Origin: an uncultured Desulfobacteraceae bacterium
GTDB lineage: Bacteria; Desulfobacterota; Desulfobacteria; Desulfobacterales; JAABSP01
Direction: 5' to 3'
Length of the DNA: 52,136 nt
Assembly: GCA_964409085.1 (NCBI GenBank)
Contig: CAYPCE010000002.1
Location: forward strand, 1 to 52,136
Shown here: positions 3,291 to 43,200 of the stretch, piece after piece
Numbering within the stretch: the first letter of the stretch is position 1
Layout of the letters: the number at the start of each line of letters is the position of its first letter
Translations under genes and position numbers: made by a program
Notes under the pieces: generated by a model
Seen by the model: only the letters and a program-made list of their open reading frames with translations
Databases searched by the model: none
What the model was told of the DNA's origin: nothing

Positions 3291-3299
3291 GACGACCCT

Positions 3300-6104: not shown

Positions 6105-6135
6105 TCCCACGCCCGTACCCACCCGCCACGCCCCA

Positions 6136-7303: not shown

Positions 7304-8056
7304 TCAGGCCATGCCGCCGTTGGCGTAAAGGATCTGGCCGTTCACCCATTGCCCCTCGGGGCTGGCCAGAAAGGCGACGACCCGGGCGATGTCCTCCGGT
7401 TGCCCCAGCCGTTTCAGGGGCGCCATGTCGGCCATCCGCTGTTTCACTTCTTCGGTCTTTCCGGTGTTGAACAGGTCGGTCTCCACCGGCCCCGGCGCCA
7501 CGGCGTTGACGGTGATCCCGCGCCCTTCCAGCTCTTTGGACAGGATGCGCGTGAACATCTCCACCGCCGCCTTGGTACCGGCATAGACGGCATATCCCGG
7601 CAGGGCCATGCGGATGATGGTGGTCGACATATTGATGATCCGTCCGCCGTCCCTTATGCGCCGGGCCGCTTCCCGAAGGGGCATGAAGGTTCCCCGGGCG
7701 TTGACGGCGAAAAGGCGGTCGAACTGGTCATCGCTGGTCTCAGCGATGGGCGTGGTTTTTTCCAGCGCGACGCCCGCGTTGTTGACCAGAATGTCGAGCG
7801 CCCCGAACGCCGTTTCAGTTTCGTCGAAGAGGCGGCCGACATCCTCCGTGCGGCCGACATCCCCCTGAAGGGCGACGGCCCTGCCGCTGTTTTTCCGGAT
7901 CTTCTCCACCACATCGTTGGCCGCTCCGTCATTTCCGACGTAGTTGACCGCGACCGAAGCGCCGGCCGATGCCAGCCGCAACGCGATGGCCCGGCCGATG
8001 CCGCGCGAAGCGCCGGTGATCAGCGCAGTTTTGCCTTCCAGTGGTTTGGATTTCAT
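7304..8056 (-). CDS. Short-chain dehydrogenase/reductase (FabG-like, classical SDR)
   Basis: TGASRGIGRAIA cofactor motif, NNAG, and catalytic Y-x3-K (YAGTKAA). 250 aa. The stop is 10 nt upstream of the GGR-like start, so the two are likely co-transcribed. Confidence 0.85.
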   Translation of the reverse strand: MKSKPLEGKTALITGASRGIGRAIALRLASAGASVAVNYVGNDGAANDVVEKIRKNSGRAVALQGDVGRTEDVGRLFDETETAFGALDILVNNAGVALEKTTPIAETSDDQFDRLFAVNARGTFMPLREAARRIRDGGRIINMSTTIIRMALPGYAVYAGTKAAVEMFTRILSKELEGRGITVNAVAPGPVETDLFNTGKTEEVKQRMADMAPLKRLGQPEDIARVVAFLASPEGQWVNGQILYANGGMA

Positions 8057-8077
8057 ATGCCAGTTCCCATTTTATCG

Positions 8078-8172
8078 CTGTCTGAACCAGGATTTATGAG
8101 ATTAAAGGATTAGCGGATTTCAGAAGCTTGAATCCCACCAATCCTTTAATCCCGTAATCCCGGTTCAGACAG
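8078..8172. repeat. 95-nt compound inverted repeat (long imperfect hairpin) built from GGATT/AATCC units
   Basis: Hand-paired stems: 8078-8088 with 8162-8172 (11 bp, perfect); 8090-8094 with 8156-8160 (5 bp); 8100-8111 with 8140-8151 (12 bp, perfect); 8115-8119 with 8131-8135 (5 bp). The apical loop contains AAGCTT. AATCC recurs at 8131, 8140, 8148 and 8156. The element is AT-rich relative to its flanks and lies between the helicase stop and the SDR start. Confidence 0.8.
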
Positions 8173-8180
8173 TTGAGTGA

Positions 8181-13078: not shown

Positions 13079-15366
13079 CCTTCCTCCTCCCCTTGTGCGG
13101 CGCGATCCCGCGGTGGTCGAACCGGAATCGGCGTTCTTCGGCCCGCCGTCCCCCGTTGAAGAAATGTGCCGTCATCGTACCGATAGGTCTTGCCGTCCCG
13201 CAGATCGACGGCGGCCCAAACCCCGTTCCCGCCGGCCGTAAAAACGGCCGCCAATTCGCCCGACGCCACATCCCAGAGGCGCAGGACATTGTCGAAAAAC
13301 AGATTACATGCGGCGATGGCGCGACCGTCGGGAGTGAACCGCGACTCAAGAATCAAACTGTTTCGACCCGTCTTCAACAATCGGATGGGGCGTCCGGCGG
13401 CCGCGTCCCACAGCTGAATGCCTTCTGGAAAACGCGAGGCCGCGATAATGCTCCCGTCCGGACTGAACGTGACAGAATAGGGGGCGATGCTGTGATCGTA
13501 CAGCCATTCCAAAGCCTTTTTTTGCGATCGATTCAACCAGCCGTTATTGCTCATCAAGTGCATTACAACGTCGATTTTCATGCCCACATCGTTCAGCCAC
13601 GGCATCATCCAGTTGCCGATTCCCTGGATCCGGTCCACTTCCTCTCTCCTATCCGTCCGCCAGATCTGGATGCCGCTGTAGGGCAGAACGGAAGCGAACC
13701 GCCCGCCGACCGGGCTGAACGCCGCATATGCGGGTGAGTAGAAACCGGCATCGAACGTCAGCCTCGGGCGACCATGATCATCTCCTATCCGTCGCAGTTC
13801 GGCGCCGGTCGCGACGTCCCACAGGCGGATGGTATTATCCCTGGCGGAGGACAGGAGAAATCGCCCGTCCGGACTGAAATCGATGGACTCGATTGGCCCT
13901 GGATGCCCCCTCAATTCCCTTATGGTTTTTCCAGAGCCGATATCCATGAAGGCAATCGGAAAATCCCCCGTGTCGCCGATCCTTCCGCCGGGCACGGCGA
14001 CGATCTTCCCGTCCGGACTGAACTGGAACACGCCGTCGCTTTCCGTTCGCAATTCCCGTAATGCGCTTCCCGTGGCCACATCATGGAAACCGAGCCTCCC
14101 GTCTCGAAATGCCGAAGCAACCGTCTTGCCGTCCGGACTGAACCGTACCGTCCGGCCGCCCGCGCCTTCCAGGCGTCTCAACTCCCGATAGGGATGTAAA
14201 TCCCAAATTCGAAGGATTTCATCGCGCGAGGTGGATGCGAGATATCCGCCGTCCGGGCTGATGTCGAGGGACAGAAACAGAATCCGGTGAGATGCCATCG
14301 CCTTGAGTTCCCGCCGGTTTTCCACATCCCAAAGATGAATTCCGGAATCGCCCGACCTGAACGCGAGGACCTTGCCGTCCGGACTGAAACGGAGGGTCCG
14401 GGCCCGTCCGTCCGTCGGAATGACGGCCGTCGGCCAACCGGCCACCATATCCCACATGATGATCTCATCACCGTCGGTGGCCGCGGCAATGGTCTTCCCA
14501 TCCGGATGCAGCGCCAGTTCGCCAATTCTCACGGAAAGATCCTCAAACCGAGCGACCACCAGCCCGGATGCCACGTCCCATAGAAACACCGAGCATTCAC
14601 GCCATTTTCCCGCGACTCGCGTCCCGGTCGATGAAAACCGCATGGCGCAATCGCAATAGTCAAACTGGCGGCGTTCCGTGTTTTTGCCCACGCCCTTCGA
14701 ATACCCTCTCCTGCTTTCATAAATGCACAGCGGCCCCGAAGCCCGCGCCAGCGCGCCGGTTTCGGCGTTCCAGACTCTCAGGATGCGGTCATGGGCGCTG
14801 GTGATCACCGCTTTACCCTTCGGCGCGAATCGCACTGAAGAAACGGTTTTGGGATGCGGCAGGATCACGGGTCCGGAGTGCTGGGCGACACGCCAGACGT
14901 AAACGGTATCCGCTCCTCCACTGGCCAGCGTTTCCGAATCCGGACCGAAGTCGAGGGAACCGCATTTCTCATCCTGCTGAAAATGGCGGATTTCTTTTCC
15001 ATCGCTCATCCGCCAGACCCGGATGCGCCCATTGGAAGCGCCGGCGGCGATCAACGTGCCATCGGGGCTGATGTCGACCGAATAAAGGCGCTCTTCAGGC
15101 GCGGGGAACCGGAAAATTTCCCGCCCATCGGCGACGGTCCACAACCGCACCCGCTCCGATCCGTCGGCCACAGCCAAAACCTTTCCGTCCGGGCTGAAGG
15201 CCAAATCGGTGACGATGCGCAACCCGAGGAAATCCGATATCGCTTCGGTCACGTTTTCGATGCGTTCCCCCTGGGGGACAAGGGGCGGATGGCTTTCCAC
15301 GGCCACCGCGGGAATGGGCGCCGACAGAAAAAAAGAAAAGAGAATCGTCAAAAAACGGGTGTTCAC
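13075..15366 (-). CDS. Secreted WD40-repeat protein (about 14+ blades, probably two beta-propellers)
   Basis: Many ~42-aa units with FSPDG...(L/I/V)W(D/R) signatures. Start re-placed at GTG 15366, preceded by AGGAAGG with a 6-nt spacer, giving signal peptide VNTRFLTILFSFFLSAPIPAVAV. The upstream 56 codons of the listed ORF lack any such signal. Confidence 0.75.
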   Translation of the reverse strand: MNTRFLTILFSFFLSAPIPAVAVESHPPLVPQGERIENVTEAISDFLGLRIVTDLAFSPDGKVLAVADGSERVRLWTVADGREIFRFPAPEERLYSVDISPDGTLIAAGASNGRIRVWRMSDGKEIRHFQQDEKCGSLDFGPDSETLASGGADTVYVWRVAQHSGPVILPHPKTVSSVRFAPKGKAVITSAHDRILRVWNAETGALARASGPLCIYESRRGYSKGVGKNTERRQFDYCDCAMRFSSTGTRVAGKWRECSVFLWDVASGLVVARFEDLSVRIGELALHPDGKTIAAATDGDEIIMWDMVAGWPTAVIPTDGRARTLRFSPDGKVLAFRSGDSGIHLWDVENRRELKAMASHRILFLSLDISPDGGYLASTSRDEILRIWDLHPYRELRRLEGAGGRTVRFSPDGKTVASAFRDGRLGFHDVATGSALRELRTESDGVFQFSPDGKIVAVPGGRIGDTGDFPIAFMDIGSGKTIRELRGHPGPIESIDFSPDGRFLLSSARDNTIRLWDVATGAELRRIGDDHGRPRLTFDAGFYSPAYAAFSPVGGRFASVLPYSGIQIWRTDRREEVDRIQGIGNWMMPWLNDVGMKIDVVMHLMSNNGWLNRSQKKALEWLYDHSIAPYSVTFSPDGSIIAASRFPEGIQLWDAAAGRPIRLLKTGRNSLILESRFTPDGRAIAACNLFFDNVLRLWDVASGELAAVFTAGGNGVWAAVDLRDGKTYRYDDGTFLQRGTAGRRTPIPVRPPRDRAAQGEEEG

Positions 15367-15622
15367 CGGGAACCTTCCTGACAAAATTTGTCGCCGATGT
15401 TCAAATTCCGACAGAATTTTCAACCGGCGATTTGCGGTCAAACCGGACCATTGGACGGAAAATCCATATTGGGTATGACCCCTTTTGTCCTCACGGCCGG
15501 CATGGGTCTCTGGAACGGGATCATCGTCCGTCATCCCTTATGCAAAGAATTTGCCAAGGCAGGTTTCCAGGATGTTGGGTGGTGCAGATTACACGGAAGC
15601 AGGGGATGGAGGTGCGCCGCCT

Positions 15623-19891: not shown

Positions 19892-21481
19892 TTACCACCC
19901 AATGGCGATGGTCGAGACCTCAACCCCCTCAATGGTTTCCACGCCGGACAGTTTTTCAAGCACATTGTCGTCCACCACCGGAATAAAAAGAGCCAAAACG
20001 ACGGCGGACAGCCCCATTTTCCGGGCATAACCTGCCGCCTGCATTCTGGCGGATTGAGCCATTGCACGGCTCTTAAAGCTTTTCACCTCAATGACCCCCT
20101 GCTTGTCCCCGCACCGCAGGTGCAAATCGACTTTTCCATTGCCAGTGGGGAATTCGGGGCTGACCACGCACTGATCCTCCACCGCCTCTTTGAGCCAGGC
20201 ATAGAGATGAAAATGGCCCACGGCCTCGGTCAAATGAAGATCGGCCCGGCGGGGCTGGTCTTTCCAGGGATTCAGGCCTTTGGCCTTTAGCCGCTTCAAA
20301 TAATCCTTGTACCGGGTCAACAGGGCGGGAAGGTCAAGTTCGGGCCCTGAAAAAACGTCCGACAGGTCGTCCAAGGGAGAGAGGGCGAGTATGGGCAGAC
20401 GCTCTCCTACAAGATCATCGGTCAGGGCGTTAAAAAGGCGTTCCTGGATGAAAGGAGCCGAAAATCGGCAAACTTCCAGGGGATCGCCTTCTGGATTCAA
20501 CACCGTCTCCGGCGCGATGACGCCGTTCTGATATAAATAGGCACACCAGTCGCGATCAAAGGAAAACGACATGTCCGACCGGGAGAACAATTCAACGACC
20601 CGACCGCGATAGGGTCCCCTGGCTTTCCGGATCAGATTTAATATGGTATTGTTGGGCTCCACGAACAGAGCTTTATGGTGGGCCCATTGCAAAGCCTCGG
20701 CGTCGATGGGCTTTCCGGTGCCGGGATTGTAGGTCTCGGTCAGCAATTCCCCGAACCAGCAAACCAAACCAGGCTGACCCCGGGTGGCGTCATGGACCTT
20801 TTCAACCATGTCAGGTTCTACGAGCTGCCCGCTTTCGTTTTGATACTGATCAAACAGATCCCTCACTTCCTCCCGGTCAAAATTGGGCACCCGAAGAGAC
20901 CGCTGGACGTTAAACGGCGATCCCCGACGGCTGTCAACGCCCAAAACCGCCCGCACGCCCACCAAGGCCAGCCCGTGGAGCCAATTGCGCTCCCGGTCCA
21001 GATAAAGCTCCCGGAACTGGGCGACCATCAAATCCAACACCTCCGGGGCGAGGGTGTCCACCTCGTCGATCAGCAGGATCAGGGGCCGGTCCCACATGCC
21101 GATTTGTTCTTTTTTTGAAAATAGACGGCGAAAATCGATCCATGACGCGATGCCCGGCGATTTCGGGAGTACTTCCCGCATCAATTCCCGGAAATCAAAA
21201 GGCGGTTCCGACAAGTTGTCGTTGACGCGCATTTCGCGGAGTCCGCCCAGGGACAATTGAAACAGCGCAAATCGGTCTTCATACCGGCGTCGAATAGTTT
21301 CCATGGATCGCCGCATCAACCAGGTCTTGCCGTTTTGCCTCGGCGCCCATATCGTGAAATAGTGGCCGCCTTTTTCGACATTGCCGACGAGCCGCCGGAC
21401 GCACCCATCGACGAGGTCGGTTCTGGGGACGCAGAAATGTTCCTCGCAATCCACGGGCCCGTAGGAATGAAATCGGCGCAT
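19892..21481 (-). CDS. AAA-ATPase-like protein with a C-terminal PD-(D/E)XK nuclease domain (AAA-ATPase_like + PDDEXK_9 architecture)
   Basis: Start re-placed at MRRFHSYGPVD (ATG 21481, AAGGAA with an 8-nt spacer). Walker A APRQNGKT, Walker B LLIDEVD. The C-terminus has GNGKVDLHL...GVIEVK (a D...ExK nuclease motif). Confidence 0.7.
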   Translation of the reverse strand: MRRFHSYGPVDCEEHFCVPRTDLVDGCVRRLVGNVEKGGHYFTIWAPRQNGKTWLMRRSMETIRRRYEDRFALFQLSLGGLREMRVNDNLSEPPFDFRELMREVLPKSPGIASWIDFRRLFSKKEQIGMWDRPLILLIDEVDTLAPEVLDLMVAQFRELYLDRERNWLHGLALVGVRAVLGVDSRRGSPFNVQRSLRVPNFDREEVRDLFDQYQNESGQLVEPDMVEKVHDATRGQPGLVCWFGELLTETYNPGTGKPIDAEALQWAHHKALFVEPNNTILNLIRKARGPYRGRVVELFSRSDMSFSFDRDWCAYLYQNGVIAPETVLNPEGDPLEVCRFSAPFIQERLFNALTDDLVGERLPILALSPLDDLSDVFSGPELDLPALLTRYKDYLKRLKAKGLNPWKDQPRRADLHLTEAVGHFHLYAWLKEAVEDQCVVSPEFPTGNGKVDLHLRCGDKQGVIEVKSFKSRAMAQSARMQAAGYARKMGLSAVVLALFIPVVDDNVLEKLSGVETIEGVEVSTIAIGW

Positions 21482-21506
21482 GATGGGTTTTCCTTGAACT
21501 ATAGAA

Positions 21507-21743
21507 CTATAGCCTGTCGTATTCTTCAGGATCGGTTTCAGCCACTTTCGCCATGGCTGCTTCGAACTTATCACGGCTACCGCGTTCGGCTCTTTTGGCG
21601 ATATATTCCTCGGTCAATAGGGCCGACACTTTTTCAGTCAGTGCCAGCGTGATCAACTGGTTAATGGAGACGCTCTCTTTTTCAGCCAGTTCACGAACCT
21701 GCTGATGGAGAGAATCGGGCAGCCGCAGGCTGATGGTACTCAT
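21507..21743 (-). CDS. Ribbon-helix-helix antitoxin (HicB-family/CopG-like) of a type II TA pair
   Basis: MSTISLRLPDSLHQQVRELAEKESVSINQLITLALTEKVSAL... is a classical RHH N-terminus. ATG 21743 overlaps the PIN stop (ATGA). The upstream 36 codons of the listed ORF were discarded. Confidence 0.75.
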   Translation of the reverse strand: MSTISLRLPDSLHQQVRELAEKESVSINQLITLALTEKVSALLTEEYIAKRAERGSRDKFEAAMAKVAETDPEEYDRL

Positions 21744-22320: not shown

Positions 22321-24384
22321 CTATTCTTTTTCTTTTTTCGCCGATTCGATCACCTTGTCGGCCATCTGGGCCGGGAGTTCGTCGTAGTGGGAAAACTCCA
22401 GGGTGAACATGCCGCGGCCGCCGGTCATGGAGCGGAGATCCGGGGCGTAGGTGAGAAATTCGGACATGGGCACGTTGGCGGTGATGATCTGGTTTTTGCC
22501 CTTGCTGTCCATGCCGAGCACCCGTCCGCGGCGGCCATTGAGGTCGCCCATGATGTCGCCGGTGAAATCGTCGGGGGTAGTGACGGTGATCTTCATGATG
22601 GGCTCCAGCAAGACGGGGTCGGCCTGTTCGGCCGCTTTTTTGAAGGCCAGGGAGCCGGCCACCTTGAAGGCCATTTCCGAGGAATCTACCGAGTGGTAGG
22701 ACCCGTCGTCCACGGTCACTTTGAAATCGACCACCGGATAGCCGGCCAGGATGCCCCGCTCGGCCGCCTCGACCACCCCCTTTTCCACCGCCGGGATGTA
22801 CCCTTTGGGGATCGCGCCGCCCACGATGGCATCGACAAACTCGAACCCCGCACCGCGCTCCTGTGGTTCCAGGACGATCCAGCAGTCGCCGAACTGGCCG
22901 TGGCCGCCGGTCTGTTTCTTGTGTTTGCCCTGAACCCGGATCTTCTTCTTGATGGTCTCCTTGTAGGGCACTTTGGGAATTTTCAGCTCCACTTCGACGC
23001 CGAACTTCCGCTTGGCTTTTTCGCAGACGGCCTCTATGTGGACCTGTCCCATGCCCGAGAGCAGAATCTCCTTGGTCTCGGTGTTCCGGGTCAGTTTCAG
23101 GGCCGGATCTTCCTCCATGATCTTGGCCAGGGATTGGAAGACCTTGTCCTCCTCCCCCTTCTCCTTGGCCGACACGGCATAGGAGATGACCGGAGGAAGG
23201 GATTCGGCGCAGTCGTACCGGATCTTGGCGGATGCATCGCAGAGGGTGTCGCCGGTTCGGGTTTCCTTGAGCTTGGACACGGCCACGATGTCGCCGGGTC
23301 CCGCCTCCTTGACCGGTTTCTGCTCCTTGCCCGCGATGCGCAGCAGGGCGGAATAGCGCTCTTTGGTCTCCTTGTTGACATTGTACAGGTTGCCGTCCCC
23401 GCTGATTTTGCCGGAGACCACCCGGAAGATGGAGAGCTGGCCGGCGTAAGGGTCGGCCACGGTTTTGAACACAAAAGCGGAAAAGGCGGCGTCCGGATCA
23501 GGCGCCCGCTCGATCTCCTCCCCGCTGGACGGATCGACCCCGACCCTGGGACCCCGATCAGCCGGCGACGGCATGCAGCCGACAATGAAATCCATCATCG
23601 GCTCGACGCCGATGGTTTTAGTGGCGGCCCCGCAGACCACGGGAGCAAAGGCCCGGTTGAGAATGCCTTTACGGAGGGCGGCTTTGAATTCGTCTTCCGA
23701 AATTTCCTCCCCTTCCAGATACCGCTCCAGCAGCGCGTCGTCGGCTTCGGCGACGTTTTCCATCAGGGTTTCCCGCTCGCTATCCGCTTTTTCCTTCAGA
23801 TCGCCGGGGATATCGCCGATGGAGACCTTGCCGTCTTCATCGTAGGTAAAGGCCTTCATGGACAGCAGGTCCACGACGCCCTTGAAATCCGCTTCCGCCC
23901 CGATGGGAAACTGGGTCAGAATCGGTTTGGGGTCGAGGACCTCGGCGGCGTCCTGGAAGGTGCGGTCGAAATCGGCCCGCTCCCGGTCCAGTTTATTAAT
24001 AAAGATCAGGCAGGGCTGATTGAACTCGCTGGCGAACTCCCATCCCTGCTCGGTTTGCACCTTGACCCCGTCGATAGCATCTAGGAGGATCGCCACCCCG
24101 TCGGCCGCCTGCATGCTGGTTCGGGTGTCGGAAAAGAAGTTCTGGTCTCCGGGGGTGTCGATCAGGTTGATGGCGTGCTTCTTCCACTCCACCTGATGAA
24201 AGGCGCTGCTGATGGTGATGCCGCGCTTGAGTTCCTCCGGCTCATAGTCCATGGCGGTGTTGCCATCCTCGATGCGGCCCAACCGTTTGGTTACGCCCGC
24301 CTTGAACAGCATCGCCTCGGCCAGAGAGGTCTTTCCGGAGTCGCCATGACCCACCAGGGCTATGTTCCTTAATTTGTCCACCAT
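22321..24384 (-). CDS. Elongation factor G paralogue (EF-G II-like translational GTPase)
   Basis: G1 GHGDSGKTS, TAMDYEPEE.KRGITI, DTPGDQNF, NKLD, and EF-G domains II-V through to the C-terminus. Start placed at ATG 24384 (MVDKLRNIALVGH); alternative GTG 24420. Confidence 0.85.
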   Translation of the reverse strand: MVDKLRNIALVGHGDSGKTSLAEAMLFKAGVTKRLGRIEDGNTAMDYEPEELKRGITISSAFHQVEWKKHAINLIDTPGDQNFFSDTRTSMQAADGVAILLDAIDGVKVQTEQGWEFASEFNQPCLIFINKLDRERADFDRTFQDAAEVLDPKPILTQFPIGAEADFKGVVDLLSMKAFTYDEDGKVSIGDIPGDLKEKADSERETLMENVAEADDALLERYLEGEEISEDEFKAALRKGILNRAFAPVVCGAATKTIGVEPMMDFIVGCMPSPADRGPRVGVDPSSGEEIERAPDPDAAFSAFVFKTVADPYAGQLSIFRVVSGKISGDGNLYNVNKETKERYSALLRIAGKEQKPVKEAGPGDIVAVSKLKETRTGDTLCDASAKIRYDCAESLPPVISYAVSAKEKGEEDKVFQSLAKIMEEDPALKLTRNTETKEILLSGMGQVHIEAVCEKAKRKFGVEVELKIPKVPYKETIKKKIRVQGKHKKQTGGHGQFGDCWIVLEPQERGAGFEFVDAIVGGAIPKGYIPAVEKGVVEAAERGILAGYPVVDFKVTVDDGSYHSVDSSEMAFKVAGSLAFKKAAEQADPVLLEPIMKITVTTPDDFTGDIMGDLNGRRGRVLGMDSKGKNQIITANVPMSEFLTYAPDLRSMTGGRGMFTLEFSHYDELPAQMADKVIESAKKEKE

Positions 24385-24522
24385 TTCCGTCTTTAACTCC
24401 TCTCTCTTGAATTTTTGCACGCTGAAACGCTTAGCGTTAAAATAGATATACTTATCGATTCACTGAAAAAAAATCAAGCGCAAAATCCCATTCATTTTCC
24501 GAGGCGCCGGATGCAAAAGCCG

Positions 24523-35181: not shown

Positions 35182-36819
35182 CTATTCGCCGGTTTCGCCC
35201 TTGAACAGGGCATTCAGATAAAATTGACGGATGTCGTCCAGATGATCGAAGGAATGGGATGGATCGATATTTCGGGCCGCCATCTCCTTCCGGATATCCC
35301 CCGCCAGCACCTTGCCCAGTTCGACGCCGAACTGGTCGAAGGGATTGATGGCCCAGATAAAGGCCTCGAAAACCGTCCGGGCTTCATAGAAAGAGAGCAA
35401 CCGGCCCACACTCTCCGGAGAGAGATCAGGCAGCAGGAGGGTCGACGAGGGGCGGTTGCCCGGGAAGGTTTTCTCCGGTCGGTCGTCCGTTTTGCCGACC
35501 GCCAGTGCCATGGGCTGGGAGATCAAATTGGCCCAGAGTTCCTGGTGGTTCGTCACGCCTTTGGAGGTCGCGGTGTACGCGGTGTACTGGGGTCGGACGG
35601 CACCGATGAAATCGATGGGAAACGGCCGGCCCTGGTGGGCCAACTGGAAAAAGGAGTGCTGGGCGTTGGTGCCCGGTTCCCCGAACAGGATCACCCCGGT
35701 CGGGATGTCCAGAAACCGGCCCTCCGCTGTGACCGATTTCCCGTTGCTCTCCATGTAAAGCTGCTGGATATGGGCCGGCAGTTCGCTCAGCGGATCGGCA
35801 TAGGGGATGATGGCCTGGGCGCCGTATCCCAGGAAGTTGTTGTTCCATATACTGATCAGCGCGGCCAGGAGCGGCAGGTTGTCGGCCTCTTGGGTATCCC
35901 GGGCATGGGCATCCATCTCCCAGGCGCCTTTCAAAAACCGTTCGAACACCCGCTCGCCGAGATAAAGGCTTAAAGGGACTGCACCGACGGCGGAACTCAC
36001 GCTGTACCGCCCGCCGATGAAATCGAACATGTGGAAGGCCCTGAGTACCGGATTGGACCGGTCATCGCCGGGGCTGCCCTTGGCGGTAACCGTCACCACG
36101 TGATGGGCGGGATCGAGCCCCTTCTCTGCCATGAAATCATAGGCCAGACGGGTATTGGCGAGGGTTTCCGGGGTCGTGTAGCTCTTTGAAATGACGATCC
36201 ACAGGGTCCCCTCGGGGCGGATGCGGGCGGCGATCTTGCCGAAGTTGTGGATGTCCACATTGGCCAGATAATGGAGGCGGAGGCCACCGTTCGCATAGGC
36301 CCCTAACGCCTCGGATACAAAGAGCGGGCCCAGATAGGAGCCGCCGATCCCGATGACCACCAGATCGGTGAACGGCGCTCCCGTCGATCCCGTGATCCGG
36401 CCTTCCCGGACTGCCTCCGCAAAAGCCCGCGTTTCGTCCAGGACCCGCCGGATCTCCGGCATCACGTCTTCTCCCTCCACGGTAACGGGTTGTCCGGAAA
36501 CATCCCGGCAGGCCGTGTGAAGGGCCGCGCGGTGTTCCGTCCGGTTGACAATGGCGCCGGCCATCATCTCCCGAAAACACCGCAGCACCTCCCGCTTTCT
36601 GGCGAGATCCAGCAAGCGGTCCATAACGGCCGTGTCGATCCGCTGACGGCTGTAGTCGAAAAACAGCCCCCCTCCCCACCGGGAAAACCGCGAAAACCGA
36701 TCCCGGTCCGCCAGCAGATGCTTCAGGTGCTTTGCGGGGGTGGCCATCCGCCCGGCCTGCTGATGCAAATCGGCCCACTCCGGCAAATCCGGCGCTTCCG
36801 GCAAACGGCATTGGGTCAT
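35182..36819 (-). CDS. pgi: Glucose-6-phosphate isomerase
   Basis: 545 aa. Motifs DYSRQRI, IGIGGSYLGP, SKSYTTPET and GEPGTNAQHSFFQL.HQG. Confidence 0.95.
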   Translation of the reverse strand: MTQCRLPEAPDLPEWADLHQQAGRMATPAKHLKHLLADRDRFSRFSRWGGGLFFDYSRQRIDTAVMDRLLDLARKREVLRCFREMMAGAIVNRTEHRAALHTACRDVSGQPVTVEGEDVMPEIRRVLDETRAFAEAVREGRITGSTGAPFTDLVVIGIGGSYLGPLFVSEALGAYANGGLRLHYLANVDIHNFGKIAARIRPEGTLWIVISKSYTTPETLANTRLAYDFMAEKGLDPAHHVVTVTAKGSPGDDRSNPVLRAFHMFDFIGGRYSVSSAVGAVPLSLYLGERVFERFLKGAWEMDAHARDTQEADNLPLLAALISIWNNNFLGYGAQAIIPYADPLSELPAHIQQLYMESNGKSVTAEGRFLDIPTGVILFGEPGTNAQHSFFQLAHQGRPFPIDFIGAVRPQYTAYTATSKGVTNHQELWANLISQPMALAVGKTDDRPEKTFPGNRPSSTLLLPDLSPESVGRLLSFYEARTVFEAFIWAINPFDQFGVELGKVLAGDIRKEMAARNIDPSHSFDHLDDIRQFYLNALFKGETGE

Positions 36820-36997
36820 GGCGCCTCCTGGGTGTCACGTTCGGATAATGGAATCATGTAAAAAAAGATACCTATCATAAAAAATATCCAACGTCAAGGG
36901 CCGGCGAGCCCCCGGCCTTTTGAGTGAATTTAATCGGTTATGGTTGCCGGAGGCCCCGGTCGCCCCGGTGGTGGTGGCCCATCGCTATGCGTAGTTA

Positions 36998-37026
36998 TTG
37001 ACAGGGGTAGGTACGGCTGCTATTAT
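36998..37026 (+). promoter_or_regulatory. Strong sigma70-type promoter upstream of the MglA module
   Basis: TTGACA (36998-37003), a 17-nt spacer, TATTAT (37021-37026), in an AT-rich 450-nt intergenic region. This implies a ~235-nt 5' leader before the first Roadblock ORF. Confidence 0.6.
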
Positions 37027-37267
37027 CCTGCTTGATTTAATCTCAATTTGGCTGATTTTTCTAAAAATATTTTGACAGCCGATCGATTTTTCAGCTAAAA
37101 AGTGCAATTGATGTGAACTGCACCGGAGCGGATTTCTCCATGCCGGGTCATGGTCGCCAAACCAATATCATGCAAGCCTTGACGGACCCTACCGTATGCG
37201 GTTATCGGCATCAACTTAAACCAATTTGATCGCTTGAGATTTGACTCAACTGATGGGGGAGTAAACA

Positions 37268-37690
37268 TTGGGTTCCCATTACGATGATCACAGCTTTTCG
37301 GAGGTCGCCCTGGGCCAGGAGCAGCTCGATCACATCGAGACGATCCTGCAGGAAGAACTCGTGGAAAGCGGCGTCCACAGCGTATTGCTGATCGACCTGG
37401 CAGGGAATATCATCGCCCATCGCGATAATGGAAAGTGCGATCATGACGTCTACTCCCTTGCTGCCCTCGCTTCGGCCAATTTCGCCGCGGTCGACACCAT
37501 GGCAAAGATCGTCGGAGAGGAGGAGTTCTCACTCCTTTTCCACAAAGGGGAGAACGAGAATATCCATTTCAGTAAAGTCAGCAATGATTTCCTCTTGATT
37601 ACCATTTTCGGAAAAAAGGTCACCCTCGGTCTATTGCGCTTGAAAGTGGCGGAGGCCATTGAAGAAATCAATCATATCATCCAGAAATAA
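37268..37690 (+). CDS. Roadblock/LC7 (MglB-like) domain protein, paralogue a
   Basis: 140 aa. TTG start with GGGGGAG 6 nt upstream. alpha-beta-beta-alpha-beta-beta-alpha Roadblock pattern (...SGVHSVLLIDLAGNIIA...SLAALASANFAA...FLLITIFG...LG.LRLKV). Sits immediately upstream of the MglA-like gene. Confidence 0.75.
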   Translation: MGSHYDDHSFSEVALGQEQLDHIETILQEELVESGVHSVLLIDLAGNIIAHRDNGKCDHDVYSLAALASANFAAVDTMAKIVGEEEFSLLFHKGENENIHFSKVSNDFLLITIFGKKVTLGLLRLKVAEAIEEINHIIQK

Positions 37691-37770
37691 CGAAAGCCGG
37701 CATCGATCTTCTCACCATGCTCACCATCGACCGACACAACGAACAACTTACCGGGTAGGAGGGACCAGTC

Positions 37771-38370
37771 TTGGCGTTCGTCAATATGAAAACGAAGGAG
37801 GTCCAGGCGAAGATCGTTTATTACGGTCCTGGAAGGGGCGGGAAAACGACCAATCTGGAATATATCTACGGCAAATTTCGGGAACGGATCAAGTCCGAAA
37901 TGGTCAGCATCAAAACGCACGGGGATCGGACACTCTTTTTTGATTTCCTGCCTTTTGACATCGGCAAGATCATGGGGTACGATGTGAAGGTGCAGTTGTA
38001 TACCGTGCCCGGTCAGGTCAAGTACGATGCCACCCGGAAACTGGTGCTGAAAGGGGTAGACGGCATCGTTTTCGTGGCGGATTCCCAGGTGGAGCAACGG
38101 AAGAAAAACGTCCTTTCCCTCAAAAACCTGCAGGAGAATCTGGCCACCTATAAAAAAAGTATCTTCAAAGTGCCCCTGGTGCTGCAGTACAACAAACGCG
38201 ATCTCAAGGACTTGCCCCTTCTGCCCGTCGATGTCATGCAAAAGGACCTCAACAGCCAGCTGAAAGTCCCCTCTTTCGAGGCCAGCGCCGTCACCGGGCA
38301 CAATGTGGTGCCGACCCTGAAGAAGATCATATCCGCGACCATGGCTTCCCTGCAAAATGTTTTAAAATAG
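37771..38370 (+). CDS. mglA: MglA-type Ras-superfamily small GTPase
   Basis: MAFVNMKTKEVQAKIVYYGPGRGGKTTNLEYIY...GDRTLFFDFLP...LYTVPGQVKYDATRKLVLKGVDGIVFVADSQ...QYNKRDL is collinear with Myxococcus MglA from residue 1. TTG start with AGGAGG 8 nt upstream. Confidence 0.85.
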   Translation: MAFVNMKTKEVQAKIVYYGPGRGGKTTNLEYIYGKFRERIKSEMVSIKTHGDRTLFFDFLPFDIGKIMGYDVKVQLYTVPGQVKYDATRKLVLKGVDGIVFVADSQVEQRKKNVLSLKNLQENLATYKKSIFKVPLVLQYNKRDLKDLPLLPVDVMQKDLNSQLKVPSFEASAVTGHNVVPTLKKIISATMASLQNVLK

Positions 38371-38381
38371 GAGGATAAACA

Positions 38382-38804
38382 GTGGGCTCCGATTACGACG
38401 ATAATGCCTCTTTTTCGGACTTTTCCCTGGGTCCCGAGCAGCTGGAGGCCATTGAGGGCGTTCTGCAAGAAGAACTGATCGACAGCGGCGTACACAGCGT
38501 CATGGTGATCGACATGGCTGGCAACATCATCTCCCAGCTGGACAACGGCAATTGCGACCATGACCTTTACTCCCTGGCCGCCCTTGCATCGGCCAACTTC
38601 GCGGCCGTCGACACCATGGCGAAAATCGTGGGGGAAGAAGAGTTCTCCCTGCTCTTCCACAAAGGGGAAAGCGAAAACATCCACTTCAGCAAAGTCAATG
38701 CGGAATTCCTGTTGATCACCATCTTCGGCAAAGACGTGACCTTGGGCATTCTCCGGTTGAAAGTGGCCGAGGCCATCCGAAAGATCAATGCCATCTGGGA
38801 ATAA
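38382..38804 (+). CDS. Roadblock/LC7 (MglB-like) domain protein, paralogue b
   Basis: 140 aa, roughly three-quarters identical to paralogue a by eye. The GTG start lies 7 nt after AGGAGG, which overlaps the mglA stop. Confidence 0.75.
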   Translation: MGSDYDDNASFSDFSLGPEQLEAIEGVLQEELIDSGVHSVMVIDMAGNIISQLDNGNCDHDLYSLAALASANFAAVDTMAKIVGEEEFSLLFHKGESENIHFSKVNAEFLLITIFGKDVTLGILRLKVAEAIRKINAIWE

Positions 38805-38825
38805 CCGTTCAGATAAGGAAGACAA

Positions 38826-39689
38826 TTGGCCGCTACAAACGAAAAGGACACCGGCGGCGATATGGACATCCGCCTGAATGACGACCATTTCGGGGATGAA
38901 GACGCCGGCGACGGGCCTCTGGATTCGGAAAAGGTCAGAGAGGTGGACGATCGACTGGATGCGTTTTTCAGTGAAGACGATGAAGACGCCGGCCCCTTCG
39001 GAGATGATGCCGCCGCTCCGACCGGCGACCGCCCCGTCGTTAAGAAAAAACCACAACCCAAAACCGGAACGGGTATAAGTGCAATGGATGTCGAAAATTC
39101 TACGCTCAACAATTTGAAATCGATCATCCTGCAACTGGAGTGGGAAATCAGCGAGGAGGTGATGAGCCGTCTTGTGGAAGAAATCACCCACCTCGAAAAA
39201 ACCCATAAAGCGGATAAAATCGCGGTGGCCTTTTTCCAGTTGATGGGGGCTTTGGGCAAATACATTCATAAAAAGCAGGCGGATGCGCACCCCGATTCCA
39301 TCGGGCTCATCAACTCCGTCTACGAGAGCCTGGAAAAATGCCTGCTGTCAGAAGACCAGAGCGAAGCGGAAAAGAAAAAAATGCTGATGGTCGAACTGGA
39401 CAAATACAAGCAGCTCAAAGAACAAATCAAAGATGCCCCCAAAAAGAAAAAAACCCCGCCCAAACCACCTGCCGCCGAGCCGGTCCGGACCGAACAGGTC
39501 GAAACGGGCGCCGAGGAACAACCGGGCTCCGAGCCCTCTGTCGTTGACGCCGGATCGGATTACGGGATGGACGAAGACCCCGATGCGCCGGCCACCAATC
39601 GGGATCTCCTCAATGTCCTGGTCCGGATCCAGCAGACCCTGGAACGGGAGTTCCAGGCCTTGAGGCAAGAGCTGAAATCACTGAAATAA
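38826..39689 (+). CDS. Acidic protein with disordered D/E-rich ends and a helical/coiled-coil core, unknown family
   Basis: 287 aa. N-terminus ...DDHFGDEDAGDGPLDSE...FFSEDDEDAGPFGDD. Core NLKSIILQLEWEISEEVMSRLVEEITHLEK...DKYKQLKEQIK. A KKKKTPPKPP linker. C-terminal helix LLNVLVRIQQTLEREFQALRQELKSLK. The start is ambiguous (TTG 38826 or ATG 38862). Confidence 0.55.
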   Translation: MAATNEKDTGGDMDIRLNDDHFGDEDAGDGPLDSEKVREVDDRLDAFFSEDDEDAGPFGDDAAAPTGDRPVVKKKPQPKTGTGISAMDVENSTLNNLKSIILQLEWEISEEVMSRLVEEITHLEKTHKADKIAVAFFQLMGALGKYIHKKQADAHPDSIGLINSVYESLEKCLLSEDQSEAEKKKMLMVELDKYKQLKEQIKDAPKKKKTPPKPPAAEPVRTEQVETGAEEQPGSEPSVVDAGSDYGMDEDPDAPATNRDLLNVLVRIQQTLEREFQALRQELKSLK

Positions 39690-39768
39690 TTTCATCCCCC
39701 GCCACATTTACCCATGAGTCAATGGATCACCGCCTTGTCTATCGTATCCAGCCTGGAGAGCATTGATC

Positions 39769-40248
39769 ATGATCATCTTTTGTGAGGAATGCGGCTCTCG
39801 AAATGTTGTCGATGGGGAAGCAGCCAAAGGGGGCGCTGCACCCCGCTGCGACACGTGCAACACCATTCTGGTCCTCCCCGGGTCCCCGTCGGCCGCTTCG
39901 ACGATCTCCCAGAAAAAAGGCCCCCGGCTGGAACTTTCCTTCCGCGACAATGCCCTGGAGATCAGCCAGGCCCGGCCCAGCATCACCATGGGCCGCCAGA
40001 GCCACAACAACCTGGTGGTCGAGGACAGCCGGGTGTCCCGATCCCATGCCCGGATCGTTTTCCGACAAAACGAGTTTGTCCTTATCGACCACAGCACCAA
40101 CGGCACGTATGTCTTTATCAAAGGGGAAAAAGGCATGAACCTGAAGCAGAACGAAATCCTGCTCCAGGGAAGCGGGATCTTCGGATTGGGCCGAAAAGTG
40201 GCCCCCGATTCACCAGAGGCGATCCACTTTTCAGTGGTCCCTTCCTAA
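39769..40248 (+). CDS. Zinc-ribbon plus FHA domain protein
   Basis: MIIFCEECGS...PRCDTCNT (a CxxC...CxxC ribbon), then an FHA core ITMGRQSHNNLVVEDSRVSRSHARIVFRQNEFVLIDHSTNGTYV. ATG 39769 lies 8 nt after GGAGAG. The listed TTG 39763 is too close to the SD. Confidence 0.8.
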   Translation: MIIFCEECGSRNVVDGEAAKGGAAPRCDTCNTILVLPGSPSAASTISQKKGPRLELSFRDNALEISQARPSITMGRQSHNNLVVEDSRVSRSHARIVFRQNEFVLIDHSTNGTYVFIKGEKGMNLKQNEILLQGSGIFGLGRKVAPDSPEAIHFSVVPS

Positions 40249-40348
40249 TCCTTGCCAGCAGCACCATCCCGTTTTCCGGCGGAGACCGCCGCTGCCGGCA
40301 TCTCCGCCCCACCCATCGCACGGTTGAGGTCGAATATGTAGAGGGCTG

Positions 40349-41116
40349 TCAAGCGCTCTGACTGGCGGCCGGGTCCCGGACCAGCATGGTGGACGGGTCC
40401 AGCACCAGGGCCGTTCGGTCCGCCCCCTGTCCCCCTTTCAGCGGCTGGACAAGAATCGCCTTCCCATCCGGCTTCAACTGAAATGCCACATCAAAATCAT
40501 CCATTACGCGGCCCAGCGTCACCGGCACGCCATCCGCCCCGACGGGGTCTTCCCGGTGGGTCTGAACGGCGAACCAGATGTGGAGACCGTAGGCATCGGC
40601 CAACCCTTTTAAATCGGAGAGCGTCGCCCGGATATCCTCGTCTTCGAAGGCGAGCCCGTCGATGAGCATGATCTGCGGAAGGAAAATATCCTGCTCGGCC
40701 AGATCGGAGAGGCGCTCTTCCAGTTTCGGGACGCTGAACCCGCCTTTTTTGAAAGTCATGATCAGGCGGTGGGGGAGAATGGTTTCCCACATCTGATCCA
40801 TCGGCTGGATGTCATACACGGCCGCAATGTTCCGGAAGACCTCCTCGTACCAGAGGCAGACTTTTCGAACCGGATCCGCCAGACTCACATGGAGCACGTT
40901 CCGGCCCCGGAGCAGGCCGTCCAGAGCCAGCTGGACGAGGAGGGATGTCTTGCCAAGGCCGGCCCGGGCCAGAACGGCCCCAAAACCCCCCACCGGCAGG
41001 ATGTCCTCGTTGAGTTCACGGCCGTCGTTTCCCATCACGCGGAGGGGGTTCCGGAAAATCAGATCCTTCTTCAACATGCTGAAAACCCTTTCTTTCAGGT
41101 GGATGACGTCCGCCAT
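40349..41116 (-). CDS. KaiC/RecA-superfamily P-loop ATPase (single domain, 255 aa)
   Basis: Start MADVIHLKE... (ATG 41116) overlaps the EF-G stop (TAATG). Walker A ARAGLGKTS, Walker B-like IMLIDGL, and overall KaiC/RadA-like strand order. The listed 60-aa N-terminal extension is off-frame EF-G sequence. Confidence 0.55.
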   Translation of the reverse strand: MADVIHLKERVFSMLKKDLIFRNPLRVMGNDGRELNEDILPVGGFGAVLARAGLGKTSLLVQLALDGLLRGRNVLHVSLADPVRKVCLWYEEVFRNIAAVYDIQPMDQMWETILPHRLIMTFKKGGFSVPKLEERLSDLAEQDIFLPQIMLIDGLAFEDEDIRATLSDLKGLADAYGLHIWFAVQTHREDPVGADGVPVTLGRVMDDFDVAFQLKPDGKAILVQPLKGGQGADRTALVLDPSTMLVRDPAASQSA

Positions 41117-43200
41117 TACGCGACGTTCTTCTTTTCCTCGGCCGCCTTTTTCATCAGCTCCTCGGCGATGGATTTGGGCACCTGCTTGTAAGCGGCGAAC
41201 TCCATGGTGAACTGGGCCTTGCCCTGCGTGGAGGACCGCAGCACCGTGGAATACCCGAACATGTCGGACAGCGGCACCTCCGCTTCGATGACGCACATGG
41301 GCCCTTCGTCCTGGGACCCCAGGATGATGCCCCGGCGCTGGTTCAACGTGCCCATGACCGCGCCCTGGAATTCGGTGGGGGTCTCCACCGCCACCTTCAT
41401 GATGGGCTCCAGGATCACCGGTCTGGCCTTGTTGTATCCTTCGAGAAAGGCACCCCGGGCCGCAGCCTGGAAGGCCATTTCCGAAGAGTCCACCGCATGG
41501 GAAGACCCGTCGTTGATCACCACCTTGACGTTGGTGACCGGATATCCCAGCTTGGGTCCCTTGGCCAGGCAGTTCCGGAACCCCTTTTCGCAGGAGGGGA
41601 TGAACTGGGTGGGAATGGCCCCGCCGGTCACCTTGTTCTCGAAAACGAAATCGGCTTCGGTCGTCGGCTCCATATACCCGGCCACCCGCCCGAACTGGCC
41701 CGCACCGCCGGTCTGTTTTTTATGGATATAATTGAACTCCGCGGGTTGGGTGATGGTCTCCCGGTAGGCCACCTGGGGCATCCCCGTCTCCACGTCGGCC
41801 TTGTATTCCCGGCGCATCCGCTCCAGATAGACCTCCAGGTGGAGTTCGCCCATGCCGGAGATGATGGTTTCGTTGGTCTCGTCGTTGACGAAGGTCCGCA
41901 GCGTCGGGTCCTCTTTGGTGAACCGGTTAAGGGCCTTGGACATGTTGATCTGGGCCTTGTTGTCCTTGGGCACGATGGCCAGGGAGATCACCGGTTCCGG
42001 CACGTACATGGAGGTCATGGTCAGCTCCATGCCCTGGTGGACAAAGGTATCGCCCGAGGCGCAGTCGATGCCGAACAGGGCCCCGATCATGCCGGCGGGG
42101 ATGGTTTCGATCTCCTCCATCTGGTTGGCGTGCATCCGGACCAGACGGCCCACCTTCACCTTTTTCCCGGTGCGCACATTGTAGATAGTGTCGCCCTTGG
42201 AAAGGGTTCCCTGGTAGACCCGGATGTAGGTGAGCTGGCCATAGGGGCCGTCCTCGAGTTTGAAGGCCAGTGAAATCAGCGGGGCTTTGGGGTCTGCGGT
42301 CAGGGGAACCTCTTTTTCTTCGTCGGTCATCTCCATGGCGAAGTTCTTCACTTCGTCGGGGCTGGGCAGAAACTGGGCCACGCCGTCCAGGAGGGGTTGG
42401 ACCCCCTTGTTCTTATAGGCGGACCCGATAAAGACGGGTGTGATCTCCCGGGAGAGGGTCCCTTTTTTCACGGCATCCACGATCATCGCTTCGGGGATCT
42501 CCGCTTCCTCCAGGATCGCCTCGGTCAGTTCGTCGGAAAAAAGGGATGCCTCGTCCACCAGCTCTTCCCGCCGTTCCCTGGCTTCCTCCATCAGGGCTTC
42601 GGGGATCGCTTCCTCGCGAACGATTTCGCCATTGTCGCCGTCGAAATAAAGGGCCTTCATGGAAATCAGATCGACCACGCCCGTGAAGTCCGCCTCCAGC
42701 CCGACGGGGATTTGCATGGCAATGGCGTTGTGGCCCAGTTTTTCCTTGAGCTGATTGACGACCCGGAAGGGGTTGGCACCGCTCCGGTCGCATTTGTTGA
42801 CGAATGCGATCCGGGGCACCCGGTACCGCTTCATCTGCTGATCCACGGTGATGGACTGGGACTGGACTCCCCCCACGGCGCACAGCACCAGAACGGCCCC
42901 GTCGAGCACCCGGAGGGCCCGTTCCACTTCGATGGTGAAATCGACGTGGCCCGGGGTGTCGATGATGTTGATCTCGTGGCCCTTCCATTCGCAGAAGGTG
43001 GCGGCCGAGGCGATGGTGATGCCCCGCTCCTTTTCCAGCTCCATGGAATCCATGGTGGCCCCCACGCCGTCTTTTCCCTTGACGTCGTGGATGGCGTGGA
43101 TCCGCTTGGTGTAGAACAGCACCCGTTCCGTCAACGTGGTTTTGCCCGAGTCGATGTGGGCGCTGATGCCGATGTTTCTGACGCTTCTGTTCGCGATCAT
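41116..43200 (-). CDS. fusA: Elongation factor G (mtEFG1/spd-type paralogue)
   Basis: [31 protein letters not shown] (the mitochondrial-EFG1-like signature rather than MDWMEQE), [13 protein letters not shown]. Full five-domain length, 694 aa. Confidence 0.9.

Follow-up and report, generated by a model that had tools for sequence, protein, structure and literature searches.

A conserved five-gene mgl operon in Desulfobacterota encodes a probable partner of the polarity GTPase MglA

Introduction

Positions 37268 to 40248 of contig CAYPCE010000002.1, from an uncultured Desulfobacteraceae bacterium (GenBank assembly GCA_964409085.1), carry what by sequence and gene order is a conserved five-gene operon around the polarity GTPase MglA. 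The stretch of DNA analyzed spans 52,136 nucleotides (nt) and is called the window throughout. Two Roadblock/LC7 proteins of the MglB kind (open reading frames [ORFs] 1 and 3) bracket the GTPase (ORF2), and two further genes follow, one for a protein without a recognizable domain (ORF4) and one for a zinc ribbon joined to an FHA domain (ORF5; ZnR-FHA). ORF4 is probably a missing partner of the MglA switch, because its family, here called the WEIT-domain family, sits directly after mglA in sulfate-reducing Desulfobacterota.

The MglA/MglB pair is the best-studied bacterial Ras-like polarity switch, and most mechanistic work on it comes from Myxococcus, where RomR, RomX, and RomY are essential to the mechanism. 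The published table of RomR, RomX, and RomY distribution contains no species of Desulfobacterales or Desulfobulbales (PMC9481161 supplement), and the supplement of the Wuichet 2014 survey lists MglA in species of both orders, most with an adjacent MglB (PMC4316618). Since MglA and MglB are present in orders that are absent from the Rom table, a different partner of MglA is to be expected there. The same 2014 survey by Wuichet and Sogaard-Andersen put doubled mglB genes beside group-1 mglA on record ("1:2 MglA:MglB" systems), and for group-1 MglA it gives no conserved neighbors beyond occasional PATAN genes (PMC4316618). Its Desulfobacterales entries list only MglA, MglB, and PATAN, so the WEIT family went unrecorded, and FHA is mentioned zero times in its main text. 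The switch and the doubled mglB are thus already known; the constant WEIT partner, the ZnR-FHA fusion, and the two operon architectures described below are new. Within open-access text we found no paper on the WEIT family or on the operon, in agreement with a first-pass annotation of this DNA, made from the letters alone, that did not recognize the composition as a characterized system.

Results

The case for ORF4 starts from gene order. A scan with an ORF4 profile, at one genome per species, returned 68 loci; the taxonomic range given here comes from that scan and from source names, and gene calls in related loci are ORF and BLAST mappings. All 68 loci belong to Desulfobacterota, namely Desulfobacteraceae, Desulfococcaceae, Desulfonema magnum and D. 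limicola, Desulfatiglandales, Desulfobulbaceae, and Desulfurivibrio, and in every one (68/68) the WEIT gene comes immediately behind mglA or mglA-mglB. By this count it is the most constant partner of mglA in Desulfobacterota. Two arrangements account for its surroundings. In the type represented by the window and 28 other species-level genomes, a PGI gene on the opposite strand is followed by an optional upstream Roadblock gene (mglB', present in 19 of the 28), then by mglA, mglB, the WEIT gene, and the ZnR-FHA gene, and the row closes with KaiC-like and EF-G genes, again on the opposite strand. The order mglA-mglB-WEIT holds in 28/28 loci of this type and the ZnR-FHA gene is present wherever the contig reaches, so the synteny on which the five-gene reading of the first-pass annotation depended is found in other genomes.

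In the commoner type, the core reads mglB, mglA, WEIT (205 to 250 residues) and continues on the same strand through DUF8082, Zn_ribbon_4, X330, REC-PATAN, Y106, and a TPR-MshEN-PilB-like ATPase, with gidB next in line. The ATPase matches the PilB model at 2.4e-147, with a score below the equivalog cutoff. Because sister lineages run the mglB-mglA-ORF4 core into REC-PATAN and a PilB-like pilus ATPase, the earlier description of the module as self-contained is doubtful. Three genes of this longer operon are conserved and have no functional name: X330 (about 330 residues, no Pfam or NCBIfam match; locus L041, positions 8674 to 9666), Y106 (about 106 residues, no Pfam match; L041, positions 10795 to 11115), and DUF8082, which has weak winged-helix similarity (L075, positions 9293 to 9763).

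The same synteny bears on a simpler explanation, in which an ordinary mglBA pair happens to have ORF4 and ORF5 as unrelated neighbors, or the low-G+C block arrived by horizontal transfer or is a defense island. That explanation could point to G+C of 0.49 to 0.55 over the module against about 0.60 in the flanks, and to the absence of a recognizable domain in ORF4. It has to contend with adjacency in 68/68 genomes from several orders, in two operon contexts, and in single-, double-, and multi-repeat forms of the WEIT protein, and with flanking genes (PGI on one side, KaiC-like and EF-G on the other) that are conserved alongside the module. None of the five module proteins had a PADLOC match at E<=1e-3, and G+C at third codon positions, 0.65 to 0.75 in the five genes, is only modestly below that of the neighbors (PGI, 0.77; EF-G, 0.84; KaiC-like, 0.69). 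The lower G+C that had been noted earlier is real, but with conserved flanks it does not mark a foreign island, and we attribute it largely to amino acid composition. Given the conserved flanks and zero PADLOC matches for the five products, we reject both horizontal transfer and a defense island; the explanation as a whole is already contradicted by synteny, and we regard it as very improbable.

The family behind ORF4 (positions 38826 to 39689, plus strand; 287 residues) came into view mainly through profiles. ORF4 has no Pfam, NCBIfam, PADLOC, or PDB-sequence match of credit, and its sole NCBIfam line, IglI at E 0.023, was rejected as far below cutoff. A single-sequence search gave only 16 relatives; a profile made from those 16 gave 442 clusters in a 90%-identity database, and an exhaustive profile search of 1.84 billion 50%-identity representatives gave 1,111 proteins at E<=1e-3 (706 of them below 1e-30). 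All members with a source-given protein name are called hypothetical, save one that bears the IMG label "pilus assembly protein FimV." A protein that at first could not be placed in any family is now a member of a large Desulfobacterota family that always follows mglA.

ORF4 had also been described as acidic, with disordered ends and a coiled-coil core. Its composition (22% Asp plus Glu) and the disorder agree with that description, but the core does not: AlphaFold 2 predicts a five-helix bundle and a separate C-terminal helix, with everything outside these two elements disordered. The bundle is the central WEIT domain (positions 39108 to 39434, plus strand; residues 95 to 203, about 110 residues), modeled with a predicted local distance difference test score (pLDDT) of 82 to 93. 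Across 41 diverse members, W106, E107, I108, Q138, L139, G144, Y146, and I147 of this domain are invariant and H155 and P156 nearly so. A variable linker of proline, lysine, and acidic residues leads from it to the C-terminal amphipathic helix (positions 39591 to 39683, plus strand; residues 256 to 286; pLDDT 84 to 91), which ends in TLEREFQALRQELKSLK, follows the consensus EFxALRxEL, and has nearly invariant E275, L279, R280, and E282.

The acidic N-terminal part of ORF4 holds a linear motif with the consensus EVExRLDxLFG(D/E), which occurs once in most members of the family and twice in proteins of the window type. Copy 2 is the family-wide one (positions 38940 to 38987, plus strand; residues 39 to 54; EVDDRLDAFFSEDDED); in the 41 diverse members its F48 is invariant and E39, V40, R43, and L44 are nearly invariant, and AlphaFold 2 places a short helix of low to moderate confidence at residues 34 to 49. 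Copy 1 (positions 38865 to 38903, plus strand; residues 14 to 26; DIRLNDDHFGDED) is limited to window-type proteins, where R16, L17, D19, D20, F22, and G23 are nearly invariant (alignment A1).

Comparison of the ORF4 model with the PDB by Foldseek gave nothing significant, the best matches (E 0.2) being generic four-helix bundles and CheA P1. Two specific assignments were tried and rejected. An HPt-like phosphotransfer domain does not fit, as the near-invariant His155 sits at a helix-helix turn of the AlphaFold 2 model, off the exposed helix face. Homology to RomX does not fit either: the ORF4 profile finds no RomX chain at E<=10, and RomX (PDB 8ZNA) is absent among the 50 Foldseek matches listed.

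Longer relatives of 420 to 1350 residues contain two to eight copies of the WEIT domain, many acidic motifs, and the same C-terminal helix. Because none of 47 such proteins has a significant Pfam match (nor did the four that were scanned have one in NCBIfam), fusions give no Rosetta-stone clue to WEIT partners. The giants of Desulfobulbales (P0121 to P0262; L074, positions 8001 to 11285) are very acidic proteins of 600 to 1350 residues with three to eight WEIT copies, and they also repeat GVDVETEADD...LP...APAL and xFFGD motifs. In the one giant locus examined (L074), the gene adjoins mglB-mglA on the 3' side, and in one long-form locus the MglA is identical to that of Desulfofustis glycolicus.

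The GTPase at the center of the operon, ORF2 (positions 37771 to 38370, plus strand; 199 residues), is by its motifs a group-1 MglA. It aligns with Myxococcus xanthus MglA (PDB) at E 1.9e-59, collinear from residue 1 and about 58% identical as counted from the printed alignment. That alignment bears out what the first-pass annotation had read from the letters: the P-loop GPGRGGKTT and NKRD line up, the G3 motif with Thr in place of Asp and with the catalytic Gln is LYTVPGQ in both proteins, and the intrinsic arginine (Arg53 in M. xanthus) is kept, GDRTLFFDFLP matching TDRTLFFDFLP. The Pfam Ras model scores 33.9 bits against a cutoff of 21.6, and identity to the orthologs in loci L005 to L007 is 93 to 95%. 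In two window-type loci the first Roadblock gene is immediately preceded by the gene of a second, divergent MglA-like GTPase, which has 34 to 42% identity with the window MglA (L025, Desulfonema magnum, positions 5732 to 6292; L017, positions 2984 to 3379).

Both flanking proteins of 140 residues, ORF1 (mglB', positions 37268 to 37690, plus strand; 80 nt upstream of mglA) and ORF3 (mglB, positions 38382 to 38804, plus strand; 11 nt downstream), are Roadblock/LC7 paralogs as first described, with Pfam Robl_LC7 scores of 37.1 bits (2.7e-9) and 32.8 bits (5.9e-8) against a cutoff of 23. Among solved structures, both come closest to MglB of M. xanthus and Thermus thermophilus (1.5e-15). On the NCBIfam equivalog model for Thermus-type MglB they score 72.1 bits (5.5e-20, ORF1) and 58.9 bits, below the cutoff of 200, so by these models they are related to the curated MglB set and are no equivalogs of it.

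Functional elements of the Myxococcus protein are missing from both. In M. xanthus MglB, Asn37 and Arg98 contact switch I and speed GTPase-activating protein (GAP) activity, and the C-terminal helix is an allosteric exchange-factor element (PMC11016934). All 49 window-type copies have Ala at the Asn37 position and Asp or Glu at the Arg98 position; among 39 MglBs of the other type, the first is Ala in 36 (Ser in the rest) and the second Asp or Glu in 39. Of two residues in the MglA-contact helix of the M. xanthus protein, Ala64 is kept in all window-type copies and Gly68 is replaced by Thr. ORF1 and ORF3 stop within a few residues of where the Roadblock core ends in the alignment to M. xanthus MglB, and the C-terminal helix is absent from all WEIT-linked MglBs examined. 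Because these MglBs lack the GAP and exchange elements, regulation of WEIT-linked MglA may depend more on other proteins.

The duplication of mglB is old and maintained. ORF1 and ORF3 are 77% identical, and the MglA-contact helix and the strands that follow it are identical between them; over residues 61 to 100, 38/40 positions agree, with synonymous differences in 19/38 of the identical codons. Since half of those codons differ silently, the identity there has been kept by selection and recent gene conversion between the two genes is excluded; both copies are under purifying selection. The downstream copy is the more constrained, being 96 to 98% identical to its orthologs in L005 to L007, against 86 to 91% for the upstream copy. 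In a neighbor-joining tree, the window-type copies form one clade, separate from the single mglB of the other type, and within most sublineages upstream and downstream copies form separate groups, which therefore dates the duplication well back. The downstream gene is present in every window-type locus. Among the loci without a visible upstream gene, three are ended by the contig and six, which have enough upstream sequence to show a second copy, have the downstream copy only.

What the second copy does can be read in two ways. The first-pass annotation had raised a heterodimeric Roadblock regulator, and in its strongest form the asymmetric 2:1 binding of MglA would be built into an obligate MglB/MglB' heterodimer, one protomer serving the GAP contact and the other exchange or partner binding. 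The MglB dimer of M. xanthus does bind MglA 2:1 and asymmetrically, with different roles for its protomers (PMC11016934), and the age and separate conservation of the paralogs in most sublineages, the synonymous divergence that excludes recent conversion, and the faster evolution of the upstream copy would all suit two specialized proteins. Yet the MglA-contact surfaces are the same in both, a paralog-specific signature is almost absent (one position, in a close subclade), the six relatives above manage with the downstream copy, and both proteins lack the helix to which M. xanthus MglB owes its asymmetric exchange activity. The heterodimer is left with no specific support, and we consider it rather unlikely. 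Because of that single specific position and of the relatives without an upstream copy, it is not favored over a second reading, in which the duplication is a dosage or stoichiometry device, serving the 2:1 complex or supplying more GAP, and the proteins are interchangeable. The overall identity, the shared contact surfaces, the near lack of a signature, the single-copy relatives, and the established 2:1 MglB:MglA stoichiometry (PMC11016934) all fit dosage. Duplicates kept purely for dosage, however, tend either to disappear or to be kept near-identical by gene conversion. These two differ at about 23% of residues and at many synonymous sites, have been retained across many genera, and are under unequal constraint, which hints at some difference in role. 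Dosage is a possibility that we hold with some doubt.

ORF5 (positions 39763 to 40248, plus strand) encodes 161 residues, or 159 from the ATG at 39769 that is the database gene call, and the early description of a CxxC..CxxC zinc ribbon fused to an FHA domain stands. The N-terminal ribbon, CxxC-x18-CxxC (positions 39769 to 39873, plus strand), is probably of the ZitP/GltJ type (Pfam Zn_ribbon_4), and its four cysteines are invariant in 34 orthologs. ORF5 itself scores 17 bits on PF13717, below the cutoff of 30.3, and several orthologs have precomputed PF13717 matches; the zinc-ribbon protein at the equivalent position of the other operon type scores 46.5 bits on that model and matches ORF5 residues 3 to 37 at 8e-5. 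By these matches the ORF5 ribbon corresponds to the zinc-ribbon protein of the longer operon type. Its best PDB sequence match, 2nb9 (ZitP), is weak (E 0.058). The FHA domain (positions 39925 to 40245, plus strand) is recognized by Pfam at 1.3e-13 and 51.6 bits (cutoff 20.7), and its phosphothreonine-binding residues, G75-R76, S90-R91-x-H93, and N111-G112-T113, are invariant in the 34 orthologs. The AlphaFold 2 model of ORF5 has a mean pLDDT of 86 and gives 98 PDB matches at E<=1e-3 in Foldseek, the best 50 of 98 all being FHA-domain entries; the best match by both sequence (1.3e-7) and fold (2.3e-7) is the FHA domain of ArnA (PDB 5a8i). The ORF5 family comprises about 100 clusters, all of about 160 residues.

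A residue that an FHA domain of this kind might read lies in the C-terminal helix of ORF4. At Thr271 (codon at positions 39636 to 39638), 28/29 window-type proteins have Thr, compared with 5/35 proteins from the other type, and in loci without a ZnR-FHA gene the position is mostly Phe, Leu, or Val. Thr271 is possibly an FHA-binding phosphosite and should be treated as a weak lead.

Layout and upstream signals make a single transcription unit plausible, because the gaps are short, a Shine-Dalgarno-like sequence precedes each of the five ORFs, and one promoter is conserved in six genomes. The five same-strand ORFs, their motifs, and the promoter of the first-pass annotation are all present, and the gaps are 80, 11, 21, and 73 nt (the last 79 nt when ORF5 starts at the ATG at 39769). 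Promoter P1, of sigma-70 type (positions 36998 to 37026, plus strand), reads TTGACA-N17-TATTAT with a TG extension and agrees with 11/12 consensus positions in the scan. In an alignment of upstream regions from six genomes (the window, L005, L006, L007, L022, and L011), the two hexamers are invariant and the remaining intergenic sequence is mostly diverged, which is better evidence for a promoter than the consensus score alone. About 27 nt past the -10 hexamer of P1 lies a conserved 28-nt leader block, TGATTTTTCTAAAAATATTTTGACAGCC (positions 37053 to 37080, plus strand), that occurs once in the window and in 0 of 100 shuffles. It is identical in L005 to L007 and recognizable in L012, L017, L022, L025 (D. 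magnum), and L032, and it contains the palindrome ATTTTT-CT-AAAAAT and a second TTGACA, with TAAAAA 18 nt further on. It might serve as an operator, or as a second promoter together with its UP element. An Rfam scan of positions 36700 to 40500 gave a chance microRNA match and nothing else.

By the first-start rule, all five genes (37268, 37771, 38382, 38826, and 39763) open with TTG or GTG. The TTG start of ORF1 is invariant in six genomes, and the neighboring PGI and EF-G genes use ATG. The TTG and GTG starts may reflect tuned, low translation initiation.

Downstream of ORF5, a KaiC/RecA-like AAA_25 gene (positions 40349 to 41296, minus strand) and an EF-G gene (positions 41116 to 43200, minus strand) flank the mgl module, and they do so in both operon types. 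In the window type the two lie downstream, convergent with the module, and in the other type they lie upstream and diverge from it, so the module seems inverted relative to them. Six window-type loci (L011, L012, L016, L018, L019, and L026) have a GspE/PilB-family ATPase of 506 to 596 residues a few kilobases upstream, beyond PGI, on the minus strand. It shares 37 to 40% identity with the TPR-PilB-like ATPase found in the other type but has no TPR extension, and it is absent from the window.

In the rest of the window no pilus, gliding, or Frz gene was found, as the first-pass annotation had said of the vicinity for pil, agl, and frz genes, nor were PATAN, X330, or DUF8082. Pfam matches on the other large ORFs of the window are to housekeeping functions (TamB, BamA, UvrD, DXP synthase, two EF-G, and PGI), and several long ORFs without a match are probably wrong-frame calls in G+C-rich DNA. 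The second EF-G paralog (positions 22321 to 24420, minus strand) is 38% identical to the one beside the module. In the region about 16 to 24 kb upstream, an 819-residue WD40 beta-propeller protein (positions 13075 to 15534, minus strand) and a 560-residue AAA_35-domain protein (positions 19892 to 21574, minus strand) are encoded, and no link from either to the module was seen.

Discussion

We think it fairly likely that the locus is a lineage-specific form, found in Desulfobacteraceae, Desulfococcaceae, and Desulfonema, of a polarity-switch operon built on MglA and widespread in Desulfobacterota, and that it works and delivers its output as follows. MglA would alternate between GTP and GDP forms, and the MglB proteins would bind it 2:1 as a Roadblock dimer and speed GTP hydrolysis. 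The WEIT protein would be the scaffold or effector, in the role that RomR, RomX, and RomY or the GltJ linker have in Myxococcus, with its acidic RLDxxFG motif or motifs, five-helix domain, and C-terminal helix binding MglA-GTP, MglB, or both, or the zinc ribbon, and self-associating. ZnR-FHA would act as a phosphorylation-dependent adaptor whose FHA domain reads phosphothreonine, possibly at WEIT Thr271 or at a site in its own linker, and whose ribbon binds a partner, by analogy with GltJ (MglB recruitment) and ZitP (PopZ). The likely output would be the placing or activating of type IV pilus or gliding machinery, which we propose because the commoner sister operon holds REC-PATAN and a TPR-MshEN-PilB-type ATPase; in cyanobacteria, PATAN response regulators reportedly act on the pilus motor.

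Several considerations weigh against this reading. The role given to the WEIT protein is drawn purely from gene adjacency and architecture, and co-transcription of the five genes from their layout and upstream signals. The window shows no detectable pilus, gliding, PATAN, or Ser/Thr kinase gene, and for want of such genes the output in the window lineage is extrapolated from sister lineages. With Asn37, Arg98, and the C-terminal helix lacking, the GAP and guanine nucleotide exchange factor behavior of these MglBs may differ from that in the model organism. The co-variation of Thr271 with the FHA domain counts as one evolutionary event, because it is confined to a single clade, and Thr271 lies within a predicted helix, which is atypical for FHA ligands.

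A different interpretation concerns the output. Instead of motility, the module might govern some other event at the pole or in the cell's polar layout (division-site or pole identity, filament organization, or envelope assembly, for example), and the link to a PilB-like ATPase in sister loci would then not be transferable. The window-type operon has lost REC-PATAN and the PilB-like gene and gained an FHA domain, its fixed neighbors (PGI, EF-G, and KaiC-like) are housekeeping genes, and MglA homologs have been redeployed before, as reported for predation in Bdellovibrio (PMC3983030). Set against this, the clade with the window architecture includes the gliding filamentous Desulfonema, six of its loci have the GspE/PilB-family ATPase upstream, and the closest characterized relatives of the components (MglA/MglB, ZitP, GltJ, and ArnA) all regulate pili, gliding, or the archaellum. 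We judge a nonmotility role unlikely and retain a pilus or gliding output as part of the polarity-switch reading.

By its components the module is a member of the MglA group-1/MglB class and is neither a conservon nor defense-like. With the Myxococcus system it shares a group-1 MglA with the intrinsic arginine and TxxGQ, an adjacent Roadblock MglB, additional, poorly conserved helical or disordered partners that tune the switch, and, in sister loci, a link to type IV pili. It departs from that system in having two mglB genes, whose products both lack the C-terminal helix and Asn37/Arg98, and in its partner: RomX is a three-helix adaptor for MglA-GTP and RomR that bridges MglA-GTP to a receiver domain (bioRxiv 10.1101/2024.02.20.581209), and ORF4 belongs to another family, with no sequence match to RomX and no fold match among those listed. 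Within the reach of these comparisons, the module has no partner of the RomR, RomX, or RomY kind. Actinobacterial conservons (CvnA-D/Mfp) are likewise operons of an MglA-family GTPase, a Roadblock protein, and accessory proteins without a known fold. Their MglA is of group 2, however, while the GTPase here is of group 1, and no counterpart of the histidine-kinase-like CvnA or of CvnC is found in the five products or their neighbors.

ORF5 invites comparison with two zinc-ribbon systems. The cytoplasmic switch of GltJ, in the M. xanthus gliding machine, binds MglA-GTP through a disordered linear motif, for which its ZitP-like zinc ribbon competes before helping to recruit MglB (PMC11135422). 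In Caulobacter, ZitP regulates pili and motility, and its ribbon binds PopZ. ORF5 has a small CxxC...CxxC ribbon that is probably of the same type, although the similarity of the window ribbon to that of ZitP is weak, as noted above. ORF5 differs in being a soluble protein of about 160 residues with an FHA domain and has no GYF, transmembrane, or TonB-like part, and the candidate linear motif is here on a separate protein, ORF4. ArnA of Sulfolobus has the same order of zinc finger and FHA domain and is 27% identical over the latter. According to abstracts, ArnA is a phosphorylation-dependent repressor of archaellum genes with the vWA protein ArnB and the kinase ArnC as partners, and these abstracts mention no small GTPase. 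In contrast to the ArnA system, no vWA or Ser/Thr kinase gene was detected among the window ORFs scanned. The member with the IMG label FimV is one of the long WEIT proteins, but their likeness to FimV/HubP hubs is compositional only (600 to 1350 residues, acidic, one with 27% Asp plus Glu, repetitive), and they have no LysM, transmembrane, or FimV C-terminal domain.

A bolder proposal, which we offer tentatively and hold to be less probable than the reading above, is that in Desulfobacterota WEIT proteins replace RomR, RomX, and RomY and provide the polar landmark or effector that has been missing for MglA. Helical bundles and RLDxxFG motifs would dock MglA-GTP, MglB, or the zinc-ribbon protein; the highly acidic Desulfobulbales forms with three to eight repeats would be multivalent polar hubs, possibly condensates; and in the window lineage docking would be gated by a phosphothreonine read by ZnR-FHA. 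If true, this would be a second, independent way to anchor and reset a bacterial Ras-like GTPase at the pole, in a phylum with gliding filamentous sulfate reducers among its members.

The WEIT family, with more than 1,000 clusters and neither a name nor a domain model, is a concrete candidate for the missing partner of MglA in Desulfobacterales and Desulfobulbales. A zinc ribbon that is probably of the ZitP/GltJ type recurs in the mgl operons of Desulfobacterota, and its fusion to a phosphothreonine reader in one lineage suggests kinase input into a small-GTPase switch. If confirmed, these partners would widen the design space of bacterial polarity modules and give an entry to surface motility in sulfate reducers and their filamentous relatives.

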